This document shows positions 51,420 to 60,806 of a stretch of 64,000 nt of DNA, one piece after another. The notes under the pieces are model-generated. The model was not told where the DNA came from and made no database searches. It saw nothing but the letters and a program-made list of their open reading frames with translations. Within the stretch, counting starts at the first letter, position 1. Each line of letters starts with the position of its first letter. Where the stretch lies: the NCBI GenBank assembly GCA_020351995.1, contig CP070674.1:3226007-3290006 (forward strand), given 5' to 3'. The translations under genes were made by a program, and so were the position numbers. Source of the DNA: Candidatus Zixiibacteriota bacterium (GTDB lineage Bacteria > Zixibacteria > MSB-5A5 > GN15 > FEB-12).

Positions 51420-52343
51420 ATGCGCAGACGAATCGATTGCCTGGGTATGGGCATCATTCCCTATGACCTGCTGTTCAATGTTAGTCGTTATCCCGACGCA
51501 GGTATGAAAATCAATGCGTCGGGGTTCTTTATGCAGGGCGGGGGCCCCGTTCCCAATGTGGCTATCGGGCTGGCTCGAATGGGCTTCAAAACCGCCCTGA
51601 TCGCGGTGGTCGGTGACGACCCTTTCGGAAAGCTGTCAATCGATGAAATCAGGAGAGAAGGTGTCGACCATCGCTTCATAATCGTCAAAAAGCAACCTTC
51701 GGCCCTGGCGGGTGGATGGATCGAGGATGTAAGCGGCCGACGAACACTGGTGCTGTCTCGAAAGATATTCGTTGAACCGGCTGATATAAAGACGTCCACC
51801 TACCCGGTGCCACGAATTCTTCATCTGGACGGACGGGACATGCCGGCGACTCTGAAGCTGGCTCGCTGGGCAAAACGAAGCGGCGTCATCGTGTCATTTG
51901 ACATAGGCTCGATGCGTAACGATATATCGGCGGTTTTTCCTTACGTAGATCACATTGTCGTCGCCGATGGATACGCGTTCCCGTTTACGAAAACCAGAAC
52001 AGCGCGGGGGGCTATTCGAAAACTGGCGAAACTTTGCCCCGGGACCATTGTGGTTACCGAGGGAATTAAAGGCTCGACGGGGTGTGAACCACATTCGGAC
52101 AAAACGGATTTCGTTTTTCACCCGGCTTACAAGGTGAGAAACATCGATACTACCGGAGCCGGTGATTGTTACCATACCGGTTACCTGTACGGATTACTTA
52201 AAGGGTTCGAACTGGTCGAGAGGATGAAATTGGGATCGGCCGCGGCGGCGCTCAAGTGCACCCGTCCCGGTGCGCGAAGCGGGATTCCCACCGAGGCTCA
52301 ACTTCTGAAATTTGTCAAGAGCCGACGGCCAATATACAGGTAG
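51420..52343 (+). CDS. PfkB-family carbohydrate kinase
   Basis: GGG..NVA.GLARMG, VGDDPFG, DTTGAGD..H.G; ATG 51420. Confidence 0.92.
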   Translation: MRRRIDCLGMGIIPYDLLFNVSRYPDAGMKINASGFFMQGGGPVPNVAIGLARMGFKTALIAVVGDDPFGKLSIDEIRREGVDHRFIIVKKQPSALAGGWIEDVSGRRTLVLSRKIFVEPADIKTSTYPVPRILHLDGRDMPATLKLARWAKRSGVIVSFDIGSMRNDISAVFPYVDHIVVADGYAFPFTKTRTARGAIRKLAKLCPGTIVVTEGIKGSTGCEPHSDKTDFVFHPAYKVRNIDTTGAGDCYHTGYLYGLLKGFELVERMKLGSAAAALKCTRPGARSGIPTEAQLLKFVKSRRPIYR

Positions 52344-52348
52344 AATTC

Positions 52349-52921
52349 ATGCTCGAGACAATACAACAATTGGACCAGACGCTGTTTTTGTTTTTCAATT
52401 CCACCCTGGCCAATCCGGTGACGAATTTCGTGATGCCCATAATCACCAACGATTGGGGGCTGAGGATATTGTATGGCCTGGCGATGATCATCCTGCTTAT
52501 CAAAGGGGACACCAGACTTCGCTGGCTGGTTCTCTTCTCGGCCGTGTGCCTGGTGCTGTGCGATCAGATATCGGCCGGATATCTCAAGCCGCTCATCGCC
52601 CGTCCGCGGCCGTGTCACGGACTCATGAACGTAAATCTCCTGATCCAGTGCGGAGGAGGCTACTCGTTTCCATCGGCCCACACCACCAACGCCTTCGGCC
52701 AAGCCGTACTTTTCTCATGTCCTTATCGAAAAGCGGGATGGTATCTCTATCCGGTCGCGGCCCTGATTGGTGTCAGTCGCATTTTTGTGGGGGTTCACTA
52801 TCCCGGCGATGTTCTGGGGGGATTGATCTTAGGAAGTTTAATAGGGCTGCTGGTATTCTTTGGGTTCACCGGCTTCAGGCGAATCGCCGGGGTTGAGCCA
52901 GGTGGTCCCGGGCAGTCCTGA
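52349..52921 (+). CDS. PAP2-family lipid phosphate phosphatase
   Basis: KPLIARPRP, SFPSAH, SRIFVGVHYPGD catalytic motifs. Confidence 0.92.
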   Translation: MLETIQQLDQTLFLFFNSTLANPVTNFVMPIITNDWGLRILYGLAMIILLIKGDTRLRWLVLFSAVCLVLCDQISAGYLKPLIARPRPCHGLMNVNLLIQCGGGYSFPSAHTTNAFGQAVLFSCPYRKAGWYLYPVAALIGVSRIFVGVHYPGDVLGGLILGSLIGLLVFFGFTGFRRIAGVEPGGPGQS

Positions 52922-52931
52922 GGGTTGAGCC

Positions 52932-53450
52932 ATGTCCTACGAAATAGAAATTGTCAGGGGAGACATCACCAGGGCCGACACGGAAGTCATTGTTAACGCA
53001 GCCAACAATCACTTCTGGATGGGTTCCGGCGTGGCGGGGGCAATCAAGGCCGCCGGCGGGGAAATTATCGAAAAGGAGGCGGTCAAAAAAGGTCCGGTCA
53101 TGCCGGGCGAGGCGGTACACACGACTGCCGGGAAACTGCCGTTCAAAATGGTTATCCACGCCGCGGTGATGGGCCAGGATCTGCACACGTCGGACAAGTA
53201 TATCCGGCAGGCAACCATCAGTTGCCTGAACCTGGCCGAGAAACTGAACATTGAATCGATTGCTTTTCCCGCTTTCGGGACGGGAGTCGGCGGATTTCCG
53301 ATGAAAGCGTGCGCGCATGTGATGCTTGACGCCGTGCGCGGCTACCAACCGTTGGCCAAAAATATCCGGAGAGTACAGTTCTGCCTGTTTGATGAATATG
53401 GACACAGTGTCTTCAGAGAGACACTGTACAAGAAAGACCACCCGGCCTGA
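52932..53450 (+). CDS. Macrodomain (ADP-ribose binding/hydrolase) protein
   Basis: GDIT, IVNAAN, GSGVAGAI, FPAFGTGVGGFP. Confidence 0.93.
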   Translation: MSYEIEIVRGDITRADTEVIVNAANNHFWMGSGVAGAIKAAGGEIIEKEAVKKGPVMPGEAVHTTAGKLPFKMVIHAAVMGQDLHTSDKYIRQATISCLNLAEKLNIESIAFPAFGTGVGGFPMKACAHVMLDAVRGYQPLAKNIRRVQFCLFDEYGHSVFRETLYKKDHPA

Positions 53451-53461
53451 GGCCGGACCGG

Positions 53462-54096: not shown

Positions 54097-55224
54097 CTAC
54101 AGGGGAAGTTCGACGATACGGTATTTCTTGGATGGTTTTCCGCCCATCTGGGTGGCAGCCCGGAGCATCAGTTCATTTGTTTCCAGCATCCAGGAGAGTT
54201 CGGCCCACTTGTAGCCTTTTTCCACACCCCGTTTGTAAGTGGCGATATACATAGCCGAGTCGATACCCCGTTTCTGGAATTCGGGTACCACTCCGAAAGT
54301 AACCATCCGTATTCCGTCAATCTTGTTTCTTACCTTGGTGTGCCAGAGCAACTTCAGCAACCCAAACGGGAAGAGCTTTCCTCTCAGGTAAATAAGGGCC
54401 TGGTTTATGTTGGGTAGAGCCAGACTGAACGCCACCGGACGGCCCTCGAATTCAGCGATAAACACCAGATCGGGGTCGACTATTTGCCGCAGATCTTGGG
54501 CCAAGTGGTCGAATTCCTCGCGATCCATAGGCACAAAGCCCCAATTGTTCTGCCAGGCGGAATTGTAAATACTATTGATGCGCTCGACTTCCTGGTCGAA
54601 CTCTCTCATCCGCAAAGTTCGCAGCCGCACCCGGCTTCTCTCGGTCATTTTGTCCACCACATTCTGAATTCGTTCCGGAATTGGATCTTCTTTCGTAATC
54701 ACGTAAGCCAAAAGGTCCATCACCTTTTTCAGGCCGAATTTTTCAGCAAGTTTAGGAAGGTAAGGCTGGTTGTAGGTCATCATAATTGTTGGCGGCGAAT
54801 CAAAACCCTCGACCAGGAAGCCACACTCATGGTTCGTAGAGAAACTCACCGGACCGCGCATTTTCTCCATGCCGGCGCGCTTGAGTTCGATCATCGCAAC
54901 CTTAAGCAGCGTGGAACCGATCTCGTAGTCATCCGGGCAATCGAAAAACCCGAAGAAGCCCACCTGTTCTTCGTGGTAGTTGTTGTGGGAGTAATTTATG
55001 CAGGTAGCAATTCGACCGACCACTTCGCGGTCACGCATAGCCAGGTAAAGCTTCACCGTGGCGGTTTTATAGAATGGGTTTCGTTTGCGATCGAAGAATT
55101 CTCTCCGTTCAGAGGTAAGCGGAGCGACATAGTTTGGGTCATCCCCGTAGAGAACATTGGGATAGTTGATGAATTTTCTTAACTGTGAGGAAGACTCGAC
55201 CTCTACAACTTCAATCGTTGCCAT
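54097..55224 (-). CDS. GNAT-fold acyltransferase of the YghO / bacterial ceramide synthase type
   Basis: F..YP..LY.DDP.YV.PL, NPF, GRI, GFFGFF, GFLVEGF..PP...MTYN..Y, GV.PEFQKRG, ELSWMLETN; adjacent to an Spt-like gene. Confidence 0.75.
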   Translation of the reverse strand: MATIEVVEVESSSQLRKFINYPNVLYGDDPNYVAPLTSERREFFDRKRNPFYKTATVKLYLAMRDREVVGRIATCINYSHNNYHEEQVGFFGFFDCPDDYEIGSTLLKVAMIELKRAGMEKMRGPVSFSTNHECGFLVEGFDSPPTIMMTYNQPYLPKLAEKFGLKKVMDLLAYVITKEDPIPERIQNVVDKMTERSRVRLRTLRMREFDQEVERINSIYNSAWQNNWGFVPMDREEFDHLAQDLRQIVDPDLVFIAEFEGRPVAFSLALPNINQALIYLRGKLFPFGLLKLLWHTKVRNKIDGIRMVTFGVVPEFQKRGIDSAMYIATYKRGVEKGYKWAELSWMLETNELMLRAATQMGGKPSKKYRIVELPL

Positions 55225-55230
55225 ATCAGA

Positions 55231-56457
55231 TTACGAAATAAGCCCTTTAGCGCGTCCGACTTTCGCGACCACTTCAACCACCCGGTCGAGTTGCTCGTCG
55301 GTGTGAGTGGCCGTGTACGATGTGCGAATCATAGCCTGGCCCGGCGGCACGGCCGGGGAAATGACCGGGTTGGTAAAGACGCCATTGTCAAAAAGTTCCT
55401 TCCAGAAGGCAAAGGCTTCCAGGTCTTCACCCACGACAATTGGCACGATGGGTGTTGCCGAATTGCATATATTGAACCCCAGGTCCTTGAATTCTTTCTG
55501 CATGCGGCGGGCGTTTTTCCACAGGTTTGCCCGTCTCTCCGGCTCTGATTCGACTATATCAAGGGCGGCCAGGACCGCGGCGGCGTTGGAGGCCGGAATC
55601 GAGGCCGAAAAGATGAGGGCCCGGGCGGTGTGCTTGATAAAATCAATGACTTTGGCGTTGCCCGCGATAAACCCGCCCAGCGAGGCAAATGACTTGGAGA
55701 AGGTTCCCATGGTCAGGTCAACGTCGTCAATAAGACCGAAATGCTCGGCCGTACCGGCTCCGGTTTCGCCCATAACACCTACTCCGTGAGCATCATCGAC
55801 AAGGATGCGGGCATTGAACTTTTTGCCGATTTCAACCAATCGCGGAAGGTCGATAATATCCCCCTCCATGGAGAAAACACCGTCCACAGCAATCAGAATA
55901 CCGCCACGGGTGCTGTTATTTCTGATGTTGTTGATGACCCGCTCAAGATCATCCATGTCGTTGTGAGCGAATTTATATATCTTGCCGTACGAAAGGCGAC
56001 AGCCGTCAACGATACAGGCGTGGTCCTGGCGATCAATCAAAACCGAGTCGTTCTTGCCAACCAGGCACGAGATGGTGCCCAGATTGGTCTGGAAACCGGT
56101 CGAGAAGACGATGGCGGCGTCTTTCTTAACGAATTTGGCCAGGCGCTCTTCAAGCTCGAGATGCAGATCCAGGGTACCGTTGAGAAATCTCGAGCCGGTA
56201 CAACCGGAACCGTACTTTCGGGCCGCTTCCGCGGCGGCTTCTTTGACTTTAGGATGATTAACCAGTCCCAGGTAGTTGTTGGAGCCAACCATGATGACCT
56301 TCTGGCCATCCATGACAACTTCATCGCCGGGAGCCGATTTCAGCGGATGGAAATAAGGATAGATGCCCATCGCCTTGACGTTGTCGGCATCCATGTAACT
56401 AAAACATTTTTCGAAAAGATCCGGATAGGTAATCCTGGTATTGTCCTTCGTCTGCAA
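55231..56457 (-). CDS. spt: Serine palmitoyltransferase-like alpha-oxoamine synthase
   Basis: YPYF, SNNYLGL, GSRFLNGT (Spt-type; Kbl has SVRFICGT), DHACIVDG, SMEGD, DDAH, GTFSKS. Confidence 0.78.
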   Translation of the reverse strand: MQTKDNTRITYPDLFEKCFSYMDADNVKAMGIYPYFHPLKSAPGDEVVMDGQKVIMVGSNNYLGLVNHPKVKEAAAEAARKYGSGCTGSRFLNGTLDLHLELEERLAKFVKKDAAIVFSTGFQTNLGTISCLVGKNDSVLIDRQDHACIVDGCRLSYGKIYKFAHNDMDDLERVINNIRNNSTRGGILIAVDGVFSMEGDIIDLPRLVEIGKKFNARILVDDAHGVGVMGETGAGTAEHFGLIDDVDLTMGTFSKSFASLGGFIAGNAKVIDFIKHTARALIFSASIPASNAAAVLAALDIVESEPERRANLWKNARRMQKEFKDLGFNICNSATPIVPIVVGEDLEAFAFWKELFDNGVFTNPVISPAVPPGQAMIRTSYTATHTDEQLDRVVEVVAKVGRAKGLIS

Positions 56458-56705
56458 ATGGGCTCCTTATCCCCAATGCGGTTCGTTTTCAAAAGTCACA
56501 TTGAACGAACATTGGATGGCAATGTCAAGCACTTCGCTTCCCAATATAAATAACCTTGACCACGAGCGAAATTAGTTTTTGTCTCGGGCGGACAAAAGAA
56601 AAGGGGCAACATCCAACAGAAATCCTTCCCGGGAGCCCTGAAATAAGCTACCATCCCACAATTACTTAACGCCGCTGTCGGCTGAGGCTGGTATTAGGCC
56701 GACTA

Positions 56706-57458
56706 TCATCTGCCGGGTCTGGTGCCCACCACGAACATCATTCGGCTGCGCAGGGAGATCGGCTCTTCTTTTTCTGAGCCCCAGCCTTCAATGTCGATAA
56801 ATCCCACCTTCCGGAACATGTCCAGCAACTCGTGATAGGAGTACATCCGGATCGCGTTATCGTAAGAACGCTCTTGCCCTTTTCGAATAAAGGTCCAGGT
56901 GCCGATGCTGGTCGAGGTAGCGAAATCGAAGCCTCTATTTTCAAGAACCTTCATATCCCCCACGTTATACCAATCGGTAGCCTCGAAATTGGCCATGATC
57001 CAATCACGATTGATAATATGAAGCATGAACTTGCCACCGGGCTTCAGGGCCTTGAATAAATTTTTCAGGACCAGCAGATTATCTGATTCCTTTTTAAAGT
57101 AGCCGAACGAAGTCCAGAGGTTTCCGGCAGCGTCGAACTGCGAGTCGAAATCAATGCGGCGCATGTCGGCGCGGTGAAGATCGAGACGCAGACCTCGAGC
57201 CCTGGCTTTTCGGGCCAGTTCCTCGAGATAGCTTTCGGTTATGTCAACCCCGGTGACCTTTATGCCCTGCCTGGCCATGGGCAGCGCGATTCGTCCAATA
57301 CCACAGGGACAGTCAAGAAATTTCCGGCCTGAACGGAGGTTCAGTTTCTTGATGATGAACCTCACCTCGGCGTTGGTCGTGCGCCTCGGCATTTTATCGA
57401 AAATCGGACGAAAGGCGGGAAAGAACTCATCCCACCAGCCGGCATCTTTCTTTGCCAT
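56706..57458 (-). CDS. Class I SAM-dependent methyltransferase
   Basis: LDCPCGIGR, VTGVDI, DMR, FDA..NLWTSFGYF, LKPGG. Confidence 0.9.
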   Translation of the reverse strand: MAKKDAGWWDEFFPAFRPIFDKMPRRTTNAEVRFIIKKLNLRSGRKFLDCPCGIGRIALPMARQGIKVTGVDITESYLEELARKARARGLRLDLHRADMRRIDFDSQFDAAGNLWTSFGYFKKESDNLLVLKNLFKALKPGGKFMLHIINRDWIMANFEATDWYNVGDMKVLENRGFDFATSTSIGTWTFIRKGQERSYDNAIRMYSYHELLDMFRKVGFIDIEGWGSEKEEPISLRSRMMFVVGTRPGR

Positions 57459-57543: not shown

Positions 57544-58623
57544 CTAATTCTTCTTTTTGAACTCTTCCATGAATCGGGCCAGCTTTTCAGCGCCTTCGAG
57601 GGGCATGGCGTTGTAGAGCGAAACCCGAATGCCACCGACAGAGCGATGGCCCTTGAGGCCGACCATACCGGCGGTCTTGGCTTCAGCGATGAATTTCTTT
57701 TCCAGATCTTCGCTGGGCAACCGCATGGTAATATTCATCCAGCTACGGCTACCAGGTTGAACCGTTCCTCTGAAGTAATCTGGATGTTGATCCATCAACT
57801 GGTAAATGCGCTCCTTCTTGGCCATGTTTGCTTTTTCGACGGCGTGAAGTCCCCCCTGCGTTTTCACCCATTCGAGGACCACTTTCACGATGTAAATCGG
57901 GAAAGCCGGCGGCGTGTTGTAAAGCGACTTCTTCTCGGCATGGGTCCTGTAGTTAAACATGGTCGGATTACCTTCGGCGCACTTGTCGAGCATGGTCTGT
58001 TTGATAATGACCACCGTCACCCCGGCCGGACCGAGATTCTTCTGGGCACCGGCGTAGATCAGGTCAAACTTGTTGAAATCCCAGCGGCGCGAGGCGATGT
58101 CCGAAGACATGTCGCACACCAGCGGCACGCCGCCGGTATCGGGATAAGCCTGGTACTGGGTGCCGTAGATGGTATTGTTCGAGGTGAGGTGCAGGTAAGC
58201 GGCATCACCCGGTATATCGAGCTTGTCGGGAATATGGTCGTACTTCGACTCCTTCGATGAACCGGCCAGGTGAACATTGCCGAGAAGTTTGGCCTCTTTG
58301 ATGGCTTTGCTCGACCACGAGCCGGTATCGACGTAGGCGGCCGTACCGCCTTTCGGGAGAAAGTTCATGGGTACCATGGCAAACTGGGTCGAGGCGCCAC
58401 CCCCCATAAAGAGCACGTGACAAGAATCATCGAGCTCCAGAATCTCTTTGAACAGAGCGATGCAGGTGTCGTTGATCTCATCGAACTCGGCCGACCGGTG
58501 GGAAATTTCCATGACCGACATACCCGTGCCTTTATAATCGAGCAACTCCTGCTGGACCGTTTTGAGAACATCCAGCGGCAGGGTCGCCGGTCCCGGATTA
58601 AAATTGAAAACTCTATTCGCCAT
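57544..58623 (-). CDS. serC: Phosphoserine aminotransferase
   Basis: FNPGPA.LP, EISHRS, GGAS.QF, AGAQKNLGPAG, YNTPP, GHRSVGG.R.SLYNA. Confidence 0.97.
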   Translation of the reverse strand: MANRVFNFNPGPATLPLDVLKTVQQELLDYKGTGMSVMEISHRSAEFDEINDTCIALFKEILELDDSCHVLFMGGGASTQFAMVPMNFLPKGGTAAYVDTGSWSSKAIKEAKLLGNVHLAGSSKESKYDHIPDKLDIPGDAAYLHLTSNNTIYGTQYQAYPDTGGVPLVCDMSSDIASRRWDFNKFDLIYAGAQKNLGPAGVTVVIIKQTMLDKCAEGNPTMFNYRTHAEKKSLYNTPPAFPIYIVKVVLEWVKTQGGLHAVEKANMAKKERIYQLMDQHPDYFRGTVQPGSRSWMNITMRLPSEDLEKKFIAEAKTAGMVGLKGHRSVGGIRVSLYNAMPLEGAEKLARFMEEFKKKN

Positions 58624-58660
58624 TTTATGCCTCTTCTAAACTATATGTTTACGCATGCCG

Positions 58661-59545
58661 TTACTTCTTGTTCTTCACATAATCAGCTATCAGAACCTCG
58701 ACGATATGTCCGATCCTGAGCATGTTCTCCTTGCTTGACGCGCCCAGGTGCGGGGCGAGGAGGGTATTGGGAGCACTGAGTATTGGTGATGACGGGTCCG
58801 GGGGATCCGAAAGCCAGACATCGGTGGCGTACCCGGCCAGCTTACCACTCTTGAGGGCCTCGGCTACGTCTTCTTCGACAATACATCCGCCGCGCCCGGT
58901 GTTGATCAGGTAGGCACCATCTTTGAAAAGAGCCAGGGTTTTCTTGTTTATAATCCCCTTCGTGTCGGGCAGCAGCGGCATATGTAGAGAGACATAGTCC
59001 GACTGCTTGACGGCCTCCTCCATGGTCGGGATGATCTCCGCGAAGTCGGTGAAGAAGACGTCGGGGTGCCACCCGATCACGCGCATGCCGAAAGCTCTGG
59101 CCCGCGCCGCGAGCGACAATCCGATACGCCCCAGGCCCAGAATGCCCAGGGTTTTGCCCAGCAACTCGGTGCGTTTGAGCTCTTTCTTTATCCATTTCCC
59201 CTCTCGCATGGACGCATCGGCCCGGGCGATGTGGTTCGGCAGGGCGATTATCATTGCGAATGCCAGCTCGGCTACGGCCACGGTAGAAGCCTCGGCCGTG
59301 TTTGCCACGCGAATATTTTTCTCACGCGCATATACTTGATCAACATTGTCCAGGCCCACGCCGCCGCGGATGATGTACTTCAGATTCAGGGCACCATCGA
59401 TGTACTCCCTGGTCACTTTGGTCTTGCTCCGAATGAGCACTATTTCGGCCTCGGCCACCCTACTTTTGTCATCGGTAACCTCGCCGTACCTGGACAATTT
59501 GTCCGGGAGCGTGGCATCGAAAGCGTCGGAAATGAGTATTAGCAT
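58661..59545 (-). CDS. serA: D-3-phosphoglycerate dehydrogenase (short form, no ACT domain)
   Basis: RGGVGLDNVD, GLGRIG, INTGRG, PHLGAS; located between DUF1015 and serC. Confidence 0.8.
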   Translation of the reverse strand: MLILISDAFDATLPDKLSRYGEVTDDKSRVAEAEIVLIRSKTKVTREYIDGALNLKYIIRGGVGLDNVDQVYAREKNIRVANTAEASTVAVAELAFAMIIALPNHIARADASMREGKWIKKELKRTELLGKTLGILGLGRIGLSLAARARAFGMRVIGWHPDVFFTDFAEIIPTMEEAVKQSDYVSLHMPLLPDTKGIINKKTLALFKDGAYLINTGRGGCIVEEDVAEALKSGKLAGYATDVWLSDPPDPSSPILSAPNTLLAPHLGASSKENMLRIGHIVEVLIADYVKNKK

Positions 59546-59561
59546 AATTACACCTTTCACT

Positions 59562-60806
59562 CTATTCATTCAAGAGATTCACGACCATACCGCTGCGCAA
59601 CTTGGGCTCAAACCAGGTTGACTTGGGCGGCATGACCTGACCGGCGTCGGCAACATCCAGAAGCTGGCCGATTGTCACCGGATACATGGAAAACGCAACT
59701 TTATATTGATTGCTGTCAACCAGCTTGACGAGCTCGGTAACTCCCCTGATGCCGCCCACGAAGTCGATGCGGTCATCGGTCCTGAGATCCTTGATGTCGA
59801 GAATGGGCTCCAGGAAGTTCTTCGTCAGGACGGCCGAGTCGATAGACTGCACCGGATCTTCGGCGTCGAAGGTGCCGCTTTTTACGGTAAGCAGACGCCA
59901 TTTGCCGTCAACATACATCCCGATGTCATGATTGTTTTGAGGAATTACCGGGCCATCTTGAAGCTCAACGGTGAAGGTCTCTTCGGTCCGGGCAATAAGC
60001 TCCTCAACGCTCAGCCCATTGAGATCCCTGACGACCCGATTGTAGGGAAGGATGCGCAGTTCGTCGCCGGGGAACATAACATTAAGGAAGAAATTGTAAA
60101 TTTCCTGCCCGGAATAGCCGGGATTTTGCTCTCTCATGCGGCGACACACTTCCGAGGCCGACTGCGACCGATGGTGCCCATCAGCGACGTAGAACGCATC
60201 CATGCCGGCGAAGGCCCCCACAATCGACGCTATCGATGCATCGTCGTCAATCACCCACAGTTCGTGCCGGACATTGTCGACCGCAAGAAAATCCACCTGA
60301 GGCGGCGGCGAGGACAGCTTTTCAAAAATCTTCTTGATATCGGCGGTTTGCCTGAAAGTCGTGAATACCGGTCCCACCTGGGCTTCGAGCGCCATAATGT
60401 GGTTGGCCCGATCATTGACCTTGGCCGGGCGGGTGTGCTCATGCTTTTTGATCAGGCCCCGGTCATACTCATCGACCGACGCCAGGGCGACCAGGCCGGT
60501 CTGACTGCTACCCTGCCAGGTCAAGCGATAGAGATACAAGCAGGGTTTTTGATCACGAATCATAATCCCGTCGTCTATTAACCGCTGGAGATTCTCCCGT
60601 CCCTTTTTGTATACTTCCTCGCTATAGACGGGTGTTCCCGGGGGGAAGTCGACCTCTGATTTGTTTACTCGCAGAAAAGAATTGGGGTTATCTTTGACCA
60701 GCTCCCTGGCCTCGTCGCTGCTGAGGACGTCATAGGGCGGCGAGGCGACTTCACGGGCATGTTCCGGTTTCGGTCTCAACCCTCGAAACGGGCGCACCAC
60801 AGACAC
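59562..60806 (-). CDS. DUF1015-family protein
   Basis: PPYDV, IKKHE.T, YVADGHHRSQSA, MPPKSTWFEPKLRSG. Confidence 0.9.
   Translation of the reverse strand: MSVVRPFRGLRPKPEHAREVASPPYDVLSSDEARELVKDNPNSFLRVNKSEVDFPPGTPVYSEEVYKKGRENLQRLIDDGIMIRDQKPCLYLYRLTWQGSSQTGLVALASVDEYDRGLIKKHEHTRPAKVNDRANHIMALEAQVGPVFTTFRQTADIKKIFEKLSSPPPQVDFLAVDNVRHELWVIDDDASIASIVGAFAGMDAFYVADGHHRSQSASEVCRRMREQNPGYSGQEIYNFFLNVMFPGDELRILPYNRVVRDLNGLSVEELIARTEETFTVELQDGPVIPQNNHDIGMYVDGKWRLLTVKSGTFDAEDPVQSIDSAVLTKNFLEPILDIKDLRTDDRIDFVGGIRGVTELVKLVDSNQYKVAFSMYPVTIGQLLDVADAGQVMPPKSTWFEPKLRSGMVVNLLNE

Follow-up and report, generated by a model that had tools for sequence, protein, structure and literature searches.

The analysed stretch of DNA (64,000 nt, positions 3,226,007 to 3,290,006 of contig CP070674.1; hereafter the window) originates from a Zixibacteria metagenome-assembled genome (MAG) and harbours, on its minus strand, a pair of neighbouring genes that were delineated from the open reading frame list and the sequence. 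The first encodes an alpha-oxoamine synthase of 408 aa that resembles serine palmitoyltransferase (Spt), and the second a GNAT-family protein of 375 aa (hereafter GNAT). The Spt gene starts with TTG (preceded by an AAGGAG ribosome-binding site) and terminates with TAA, after which the letters TCTGAT lead directly to the ATG of the GNAT gene; the gap is thus exactly 6 nt (55225-55230), as the first-pass annotation of this DNA had reported. A lipoprotein gene follows, a terminator-like hairpin closes the unit, and a block of serC, serA-like and DUF1015 genes lies upstream (Table 1).

Table 1. Features of the Spt-GNAT locus (positions are those of the window)
Feature	Position	Strand	Evidence and remarks
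DUF1015 gene	59562-60806	-	Pfam match; context, upstream of Spt
Short serA-like dehydrogenase	58661-59569	-	PGDH model 247 bits, below its cut-off; context only
serC	57544-58623	-	NCBIfam serC 491.8 bits, above its cut-off; context upstream of Spt
Intergenic region upstream of Spt	56458-56705	-	248 nt; promoter-like match and AAGGAG
Serine palmitoyltransferase-like alpha-oxoamine synthase (Spt)	55231-56457	-	NF047600, PDB, tree, catalytic residues
YghO/bCerS-type tandem-GNAT N-acyltransferase, candidate ceramide synthase	54097-55224	-	YghO homology, AF2 fold, synteny, fusion
Lipoprotein, 185 aa	53462-54019	-	Lipobox LLSAC, Cys24; 77 nt downstream of GNAT
Terminator-like hairpin ending the Spt-GNAT-lipoprotein unit	53440-53458	-	8-pair stem (6 G-C), loop 3, T-rich tail

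By eye, the region upstream of Spt contains TTGACA (56528-56523), a 17-nt spacer and TTCAAT (56505-56500), which we regard as a promoter-like match only. This site was not listed by the promoter scan because its -10 hexamer lacks an A at position 2. The same scan registered a second promoter-like site (TTGACA-17-TATTTT, 54053-54025) ahead of the lipoprotein gene.

The synthase was assigned by profile searches, structural databases, phylogeny and residue conservation, all of which support an SPT-like protein. It matches the Pfam family Aminotran_1_2 (E 1.6e-61), and its best NCBIfam model is NF047600 (Bacteroidota-type SPT; 552.8 bits, the next model reaching 417.5), while its best PDB match is the SPT of Sphingobacterium multivorum (3a2b/8guh, 453 bits, vs. 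278 for Kbl). Taken together, the PDB and NCBIfam scores favour SPT over the alternatives by 135-150 bits. We stress that the 552.8 bits fall under the curated equivalog cut-off of NF047600 (640) and place the protein outside a trusted range built on Bacteroidota. In the maximum likelihood tree it branches within a clade that contains both validated SPTs (PDB 2jg2 from Sphingomonas paucimobilis and 3a2b from S. multivorum; support 88/91), apart (93/92) from E. coli Kbl and BioF, Thermus BioF/Kbl and the second oxoamine synthase of the same genome. The phylogenetic check advised by the first-pass annotation hence groups the enzyme with SPTs and not with Kbl or BioF. At the residue level, His146, Asp221, His224, Lys255 and Arg378 align with His159, Asp231, His234, Lys265 and Arg390 of the S. 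paucimobilis SPT, with whose catalytic residues Ser254-Lys255 also aligns. The Spt-type signature noted earlier, GSRFLNGT, is indeed present and shared with S. multivorum SPT (GSRMLNGT in S. paucimobilis).

The second protein likewise agreed with its initial description as a YghO-type GNAT, since it aligns over its full length with E. coli YghO (35% identity, 374 aligned positions, E 5e-81) and is predicted to adopt a tandem-GNAT fold. A published comparison (PMC9386255) pairs YghO (ECD_02850) with the Caulobacter ceramide synthase CC_1154 (bCerS), and the tie between the Zixibacterial GNAT and bCerS is made via YghO and this orthology table. Its AF2 model (pLDDT 96.4) comprises two GNAT domains, and the best Foldseek matches were the tandem GNATs MAB_4324, MshD and a glucosamine N-acetyltransferase (E 4e-14 to 1e-11, TM 0.53-0.70, normalised to target length). 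A PDB sequence search with the GNAT returned no match, and no Pfam or NCBIfam family was matched significantly, the sole trace being Acetyltransf_1 (E 0.0018). Most of the seven named homologues retain motifs such as VGRI, NWGFVP and SW(I/M)LE(T/D)N, with departures from the second and third in the proteins of Bacteroides and Aureispira. Taken together, the homology supports this protein as a candidate ceramide synthase of the YghO/CC_1154 family.

The survey of the phylum recovered Spt in all 121 Zixibacteria genomes and the GNAT in 120 of them. The adjacency is not attributable to chance: in 98 of the 121 the GNAT gene comes immediately after Spt and shares its strand (3-110 nt between alignment edges). 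Some of the genomes have genes inserted between the two, and these are mutually unrelated (phosphorylase-like, omptin-like and a CMD-family protein). Natural Spt-GNAT fusions were also encountered (P0149 and P0265): a 780-aa fusion protein, present on three contigs, matches the window Spt over its N-terminal half (49% identity) and the GNAT over its C-terminal half (43%). Homologues of both genes are furthermore adjacent in Streptomyces, Rubrobacter and Aureispira.

From the homology and fold of the proteins, the conservation of Spt's catalytic residues, and the co-occurrence of the genes throughout the phylum, their adjacency and their fusion, we reason that the pair encodes the Zixibacterial forms of the enzymes for the first two steps of bacterial ceramide synthesis, with a CerR-like short-chain dehydrogenase/reductase (SDR) available for the third step, and assign to this reading a probability of roughly 80%. 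Spt, a PLP enzyme, would condense L-serine with a long-chain acyl thioester to 3-ketosphinganine; the tandem GNAT, translationally coupled 6 nt downstream, would N-acylate the amino group and yield 3-keto-dihydroceramide (oxidised ceramide); and the extended SDR would reduce the 3-keto group to give dihydroceramide. The substrates (serine; acyl-CoA vs. acyl-ACP), the chain lengths and the head group are what we infer, and the presumed order of acylation followed by reduction is taken by analogy from the Caulobacter model.

The first-pass annotation was correct in stating that no CerR-type reductase is encoded within the window, and the genome search it advised led to a candidate situated 2.4 Mb away (G000:C1:876033-877022). 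In this search, the candidate was 38% identical (E 3e-42) to the reductase of the Streptomyces cluster and 31% identical to that of E. coli. The gene lies in an operon with two others, which encode a membrane protein of 140 aa with about four helices and a class-V PLP enzyme (cysteine desulfurase/C-S lyase-like), and the three occur in the order reductase, membrane protein, PLP enzyme in 70 of 80 named loci. The N-terminus of the candidate runs straight into GxxGxxG, with no signal peptide discernible by eye, and its E. coli and Streptomyces homologues are alike in this respect; for the Caulobacter CerR, a periplasmic location has been reported (PMC11087976).

The product could alternatively stay at the 3-keto stage, or be reduced by another enzyme, with the SDR at 876 kb and its class-V PLP partner acting in another lipid pathway. 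Such a scenario would fit the lack of linkage between the SDR block and Spt in the window's order, as well as the four genomes of family f9 that possess Spt-GNAT but yielded no orthologue of the SDR at a threshold of E 1e-45. It would also fit the best NCBIfam models of the SDR (HpnA and OleD, both scoring below their cut-offs) and the occurrence in Bacteroides of an unrelated 3-ketosphinganine reductase, BT_0972 (PMC9278070). We nevertheless regard it as unlikely: orthologues of the SDR were found in 115 of the 121 genomes, and in 44 of these 115 (RBG-1 included) the gene is the immediate upstream and divergent neighbour of Spt, the deep-branching Zixibacteria having the reductase block abutting Spt-GNAT. 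Moreover, BLASTP gives 35-36% identity between this SDR and those of the Streptomyces and Aureispira clusters (36% for Aureispira), whereas the second SDR of the block reaches only 23-27% against the cluster reductases.

Quite unlikely, in our view, is that the pair produces an N-acyl amino lipid other than a sphingolipid, the synthase making 1-deoxy-type bases from alanine or glycine, or capnine-type sulfonolipids from cysteate, and the GNAT acylating its product. Alpha-oxoamine synthases change their amino-acid substrate by few alterations, alanine is converted to 1-deoxyceramides by the same enzymes (PMC11334938), and the score below the equivalog cut-off leaves room for a departure from serine. 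In addition, a cysteate-C-fatty acyltransferase (PDB 28eh, 302 bits) is the third-best distinct PDB sequence, after two from S. multivorum SPT. This cysteate enzyme, however, scores 150 bits below SPT, branches outside the clade that unites the window protein with both validated SPTs, and has Ala in place of Ser at the Ser-Lys-Ser motif, which elsewhere in the alignment is found in SPTs only. A housekeeping Kbl or BioF that is accidentally adjacent to an unrelated acetyltransferase is a highly improbable reading: the Kbl and BioF models do score about 394 bits and the GNAT lacks a family match, but the genome encodes a separate Kbl/BioF-type synthase (G000:C1:417281-418342) that groups with E. 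coli Kbl, the pair is widely adjacent and in some organisms fused, and the GNAT is a full-length YghO homologue.

The ceramide reading is further informed by comparison with known systems. The pathway of Caulobacter crescentus consists of Spt (CC_1162), bCerS (CC_1154/CCNA_01212) and CerR (CC_1164/CCNA_01222), and the same three enzyme classes are encountered in Zixibacteria. Its counterpart in E. coli B/BL21 includes YghO, to which the Zixibacterial GNAT is 35% identical; the Zixibacterial SDR is homologous to the reductase of such E. coli/Caulobacter-type clusters (28-31% identity). Differences are nonetheless evident. By identity, the Zixibacterial Spt belongs with the Bacteroidota enzymes (S. 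multivorum SPT, 52%) and not with the type found in Sphingomonas and E. coli (38-40%), unlike the enzyme of the Caulobacter-like pathway. The E. coli locus (L003) encodes an oxoamine synthase, an ACP, an epimerase-family reductase, an acyl-AMP ligase, YghO and lptF/G paralogues, whereas neither in the window nor in the sampled relatives is the Zixibacterial Spt gene flanked by a dedicated gene for an ACP or acyl-ACP synthetase, no lptF/G paralogues adjoin the pair, and the reductase is instead found in an operon with the small membrane protein and the class-V PLP enzyme, unlike in Caulobacter.

Bacteroidota, whose set comprises Spt (BT_0870/S. multivorum SPT), CerS BF9343_4218 and CerR BF9343_4240, provide the nearest structurally solved relatives of the Zixibacterial Spt. 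The three sphingolipid genes are scattered in Bacteroides (PMC11334938; seen also at loci L028 and L029), in contrast with the coupled Spt and GNAT genes of Zixibacteria. The Zixibacterial GNAT is closer to proteobacterial and actinobacterial proteins (37.5% identity to the cluster GNAT of Streptomyces and 39% to that of Rubrobacter) than to the Bacteroides finegoldii GNAT (27%, E 1e-42), which we presume to be the orthologue of BF9343_4218. On plasmid pAUEa of Aureispira anguillae, an SDR gene divergent from an oxoamine synthase gene, itself followed by that of a GNAT, gives an order identical to that of the deep-branching Zixibacteria (RBG-1 included), the proteins being 36% (SDR), 50% (synthase) and 32% (GNAT) identical to the Zixibacterial ones. 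Rubrobacter and Streptomyces have oxoamine synthase-GNAT-SDR operons with homologous GNATs. The Aureispira, Rubrobacter and Streptomyces clusters are without the membrane protein, the class-V PLP enzyme and the lipoprotein of Zixibacteria, and our literature search found no experimental characterisation of them.

The genes around the pair are conserved over much narrower ranges. Lipoprotein orthologues (22-48% identity) directly follow the GNAT gene in every one of the nine genomes sampled from the window's order and were found in none of the seven sampled from other orders. The protein itself, which the first-pass annotation named as a candidate for transport or tailoring, had no Pfam or NCBIfam match; its AF2 model (pLDDT 87.7) is all-beta and finds no credible counterpart among PDB folds (best E 0.06, TM < 0.3). 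The serC/serA-like/DUF1015 block precedes Spt in four of the five family f1 genomes sampled (the window's features of this kind are given in Table 1) and in none of 11 sampled outside that family. Two neighbours that the first-pass annotation had proposed as accessory enzymes did not hold up. The methyltransferase, suggested for tailoring, is kept upstream of Spt only within the genus, and its resemblance to those located beside Spt in Parabacteroides and Priestia (E 0.02-0.2) does not amount to real homology. The PAP2 protein, suggested to act on sphingoid phosphates, is an ordinary PF01569 lipid phosphatase, closest to undecaprenyl-diphosphatases and encoded in a separate convergent operon; its neighbourhood is kept only within the window's order, and we found no evidence supporting the suggested role. 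As a tentative and rather doubtful suggestion, Zixibacteria might possess an extended lineage-specific sphingolipid module, in which the reductase/membrane protein/PLP block and the order-level lipoprotein would tailor the base or head group, or anchor or export the ceramide.

The Zixibacteria, a phylum without cultured members, occur widely in sediments and soils, and to our knowledge their membrane lipids are undescribed; a literature search retrieved nothing linking them to sphingolipids or ceramides. The original proposal of ceramide synthesis in a lineage outside Bacteroidota is supported as far as sequence goes by the SPT clade, the homology to YghO and the Spt-linked GNAT clusters, and we consider ceramide synthesis in Zixibacteria to be well supported by inference because of the identities of Spt and GNAT, the phylum survey, the fusion and the reductase candidate. 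The finding adds a new lineage to those with an already known pathway; it does not amount to a new type of system. It leaves the accepted mechanism of the pathway unchanged, and what novelty there is might reside in the conserved operon of reductase, membrane protein and PLP enzyme. The Zixibacterial result fits the sphingolipid potential described across about 40 phyla in Black Sea metagenomes (PMC11334938). The near-universal presence in the phylum of Spt and a bCerS-type acyltransferase (121 and 120 of 121 genomes) makes ceramide-type lipids a probable core trait of the Zixibacterial envelope and, for lipid geochemists, marks these bacteria as a candidate source of environmental ceramides.

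The window (G000:C1:3226007-3290006) is part of one 3.6-Mb contig, and its ORFs and sequence match exactly the coordinates and the 6-nt gap between the Spt and GNAT genes reported in the first-pass annotation.

Positions of the candidate ceramide genes and their neighbours (within the window, except for the reductase operon, placed on the genome's contig, G000:C1, and in brackets on locus L021)
Feature	Position	Strand	Remarks
Spt, 408 aa	55231-56457	-	ORF; TTG start with AAGGAG ahead
GNAT, 375 aa	54097-55224	-	ORF; begins six bases past the Spt stop codon
Lipoprotein, 185 aa	53462-54019	-	77 nt past GNAT
Terminator-like hairpin	53458-53440	-	after the lipoprotein
Methyltransferase	56706-57458		upstream of Spt, 248-nt gap between
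serC, short serA-like dehydrogenase, DUF1015 gene	57544-60806		farther upstream, beyond the methyltransferase
Reductase operon	G000:C1:873235-877022 (L021:5235-9023)		outside the window; CerR-like SDR, 140-aa membrane protein, class-V PLP enzyme

Spt was present in all of the 121 Zixibacteria genomes sampled (79 genera) and GNAT in 120, the single GNAT-less genome having Spt at a contig end. In 98 genomes GNAT comes directly 3' of Spt and in the same orientation; a further 8 have a gap of 226 to 2,381 nt (with one or two other genes inside it in the majority), 13 carry the pair on separate contigs, and one has a distance of 25 kb between them. A natural 780-aa fusion (P0149, seen on three contigs) unites them in one protein, its first half 49% identical to the window Spt and its second half 43% to GNAT. 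On sequence grounds, the two genes belong together.

We consider it most likely (probability of about 0.8) that the pair acts with a distant SDR in a three-step route to dihydroceramide: Spt would condense serine with an acyl thioester to yield 3-ketosphinganine, GNAT would N-acylate the latter to 3-keto-dihydroceramide, and the SDR would carry out the final reduction. The placement of N-acylation before reduction is borrowed from the Caulobacter model (PMC11087976). Acyl-CoA is, we infer, the more likely acyl donor, given that this is a Bacteroidota-type Spt without a dedicated ACP gene at its side.

The first-pass annotation had noted that CerR is missing from the window, which proved correct, and the genome search that it suggested (performed with cluster reductases of E. 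coli and Streptomyces as queries) returned one clear top match, a 330-aa extended SDR (G000:C1:876033-877022; 31% and 38% identity, respectively, and 36% to the Aureispira cluster reductase). A second, HpnA-like SDR, which in this genome follows the other genes of the reductase operon, reaches only 23-27% identity to the cluster reductases. Orthologues of the CerR-like SDR occur in 115 of the 121 genomes. The 44 in which it adjoins Spt directly and divergently, 82-564 nt off, all belong to taxonomic orders other than the window's, which points to a likely ancestral layout of reductase, divergent Spt and then GNAT, as in Aureispira; within the window's order the reductase block would have moved away from Spt. 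Four genomes of family f9 (G028, G032, G063, G119) encode Spt followed by GNAT and yielded no SDR orthologue with an E-value of 1e-45 or lower; a different reductase may serve them, or their pathway may halt at the keto stage. A different or missing reductase, which is compatible with the three-step reading, is regarded as unlikely.

The SDR is invariably accompanied by the membrane protein and the PLP enzyme; the three keep a fixed order in 70 of the 80 named Zixibacteria loci (the misses being mostly contig ends), and the operon was seen also at loci L042 and L121 (RBG-1, which we take to be the first described Zixibacteria genome). The membrane protein has no Pfam or NCBIfam match; the PLP enzyme bears only distant similarity to cysteine desulfurases, C-S lyases and PvdN, and its best 80 relatives (80/80) come from Zixibacteria-type MAGs. 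Zixibacteria-type operons (57-65% identity) were also encountered in many MAGs titled 'uncultured Ignavibacteriales', 'GN15', 'Calditrichaeota' or 'Acidoferrum' (loci L054, L055, L057 and others), whose submitter labels probably do not match their placement.

The top NCBIfam model for Spt was NF047600 (Bacteroidota-type serine palmitoyltransferase), with 552.8 bits, a score below the curated cut-off of 640 and 135 bits over any Kbl, BioF, ALAS or CqsA model. Among PDB sequences, Sphingobacterium multivorum SPT came first (453 bits), followed by cysteate-C-fatty acyltransferase (302) and Kbl (278). In a maximum-likelihood tree (built from sequences taken from PDB alignments and annotated records), one clade (88/91) united the window Spt, the two validated SPTs (S. 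paucimobilis and S. multivorum), the Parabacteroides Spt and the cluster synthases of E. coli, Streptomyces, Rubrobacter and Aureispira. Its catalytic residues are conserved in the alignment, where Ser-Lys-Ser around the PLP lysine is common to Spt and the SPTs only. The cysteate enzyme falls outside the SPT clade, and that the synthase takes a different amino acid appears quite improbable. The opposite side of the tree (93/92) holds E. coli Kbl and BioF, Thermus BioF/Kbl and the genome's own second synthase (G000:C1:417281-418342), and a Kbl or BioF standing beside GNAT by chance can be practically dismissed. The window synthase, as classified from its sequence, is thus an Spt, in line with its first assignment. 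A Bacillota synthase 54% identical to it (Priestia megaterium plasmid NZ_CP137804.1, locus L030, 3625-7212) also places in the SPT clade; it adjoins a methyltransferase and a membrane acyltransferase, without a YghO-type GNAT.

GNAT had no significant match in the family libraries (Acetyltransf_1, at E 0.0018, being the sole trace), and an exhaustive search with a limit of E 0.001 recovered 7,955 cluster representatives. E. coli YghO (tblastn, annotated plasmid records) is 35% identical to it and is encoded among a synthase, an ACP, an epimerase-family reductase, an acyl-AMP ligase and lptF/G paralogues, a cluster presented as corresponding to the Caulobacter ceramide genes, YghO being tabulated beside CC_1154 (PMC9386255). 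Homologues lie directly 3' of an Spt-like synthase in Streptomyces and Rubrobacter, where the reductase comes after them, and in Aureispira, where it is instead upstream and divergent. Because its pairwise identities amount to 35-39% with proteobacterial and actinobacterial members and 27% with one Bacteroides homologue (YghO and the latter likewise share 27%), the Zixibacterial protein sits inside the family's span. Its AlphaFold model (pLDDT 96.4) is a tandem GNAT, with MAB_4324, mycothiol synthase MshD and a glucosamine N-acetyltransferase as closest solved folds. Hence the YghO-type assignment stands, and the protein is classed as a YghO/bCerS-type tandem GNAT and candidate ceramide synthase, tied to the Caulobacter enzyme via YghO.

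Divergent second YghO-type copies (23-41% identity), away from Spt, were found in genomes G075, G057, G023, G032, G046, G025, G097, G078 and G092. Among further natural fusions, P0265 again joins Spt to GNAT, and P0269 (940 aa) and P0121 (784 aa) include a fusion of GNAT with an AMP-binding acyl-activating enzyme as well as a protein in which the whole GNAT is duplicated in tandem. On Rubrobacter radiotolerans plasmid 1 (locus L027, 6932-12524) an oxoamine synthase-GNAT-SDR operon precedes an LTA-synthase-family protein, which might transfer the head group of a ceramide-type lipid in this actinobacterium.

Of the partners first proposed, the lipoprotein comes after GNAT in each of the nine genomes sampled from the window's order (22-48% identity) and was not found in the seven sampled from other orders; its model is all-beta (pLDDT 87.7), matched no solved fold, and leaves a role in lipid handling possible. 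The methyltransferase, suggested for tailoring, precedes Spt in the same genus only and has no homology to Spt-adjacent methyltransferases elsewhere, while the PAP2 protein, suggested to act on sphingoid phosphates, is an ordinary PF01569 member nearest to undecaprenyl-diphosphatases, in its own convergent operon; neither proposal was upheld. The GTG start of the PAP2 ORF as listed (52256-52921) falls within the preceding pfkB-like gene; from the ATG at 52352 it has 189 aa, in agreement with a 188-aa orthologue of a same-genus genome. Of the five genomes sampled from family f1, four have the serC/serA-like/DUF1015 block upstream of Spt, and no genome sampled outside the family does; serine-synthesis genes near Spt are suggestive of substrate supply, though not as a general feature. 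The serA-like dehydrogenase (302 aa, without ACT domain) is packed with serC and DUF1015, the latter ending at, or a few bases from, its start; DUF1015 could be a serine-pathway partner.

Our literature search found no link between Zixibacteria and sphingolipids. [quoted passage not shown] The observations added here are the near-universal presence of the pair across the phylum and the constant, uncharacterised partners of the reductase.
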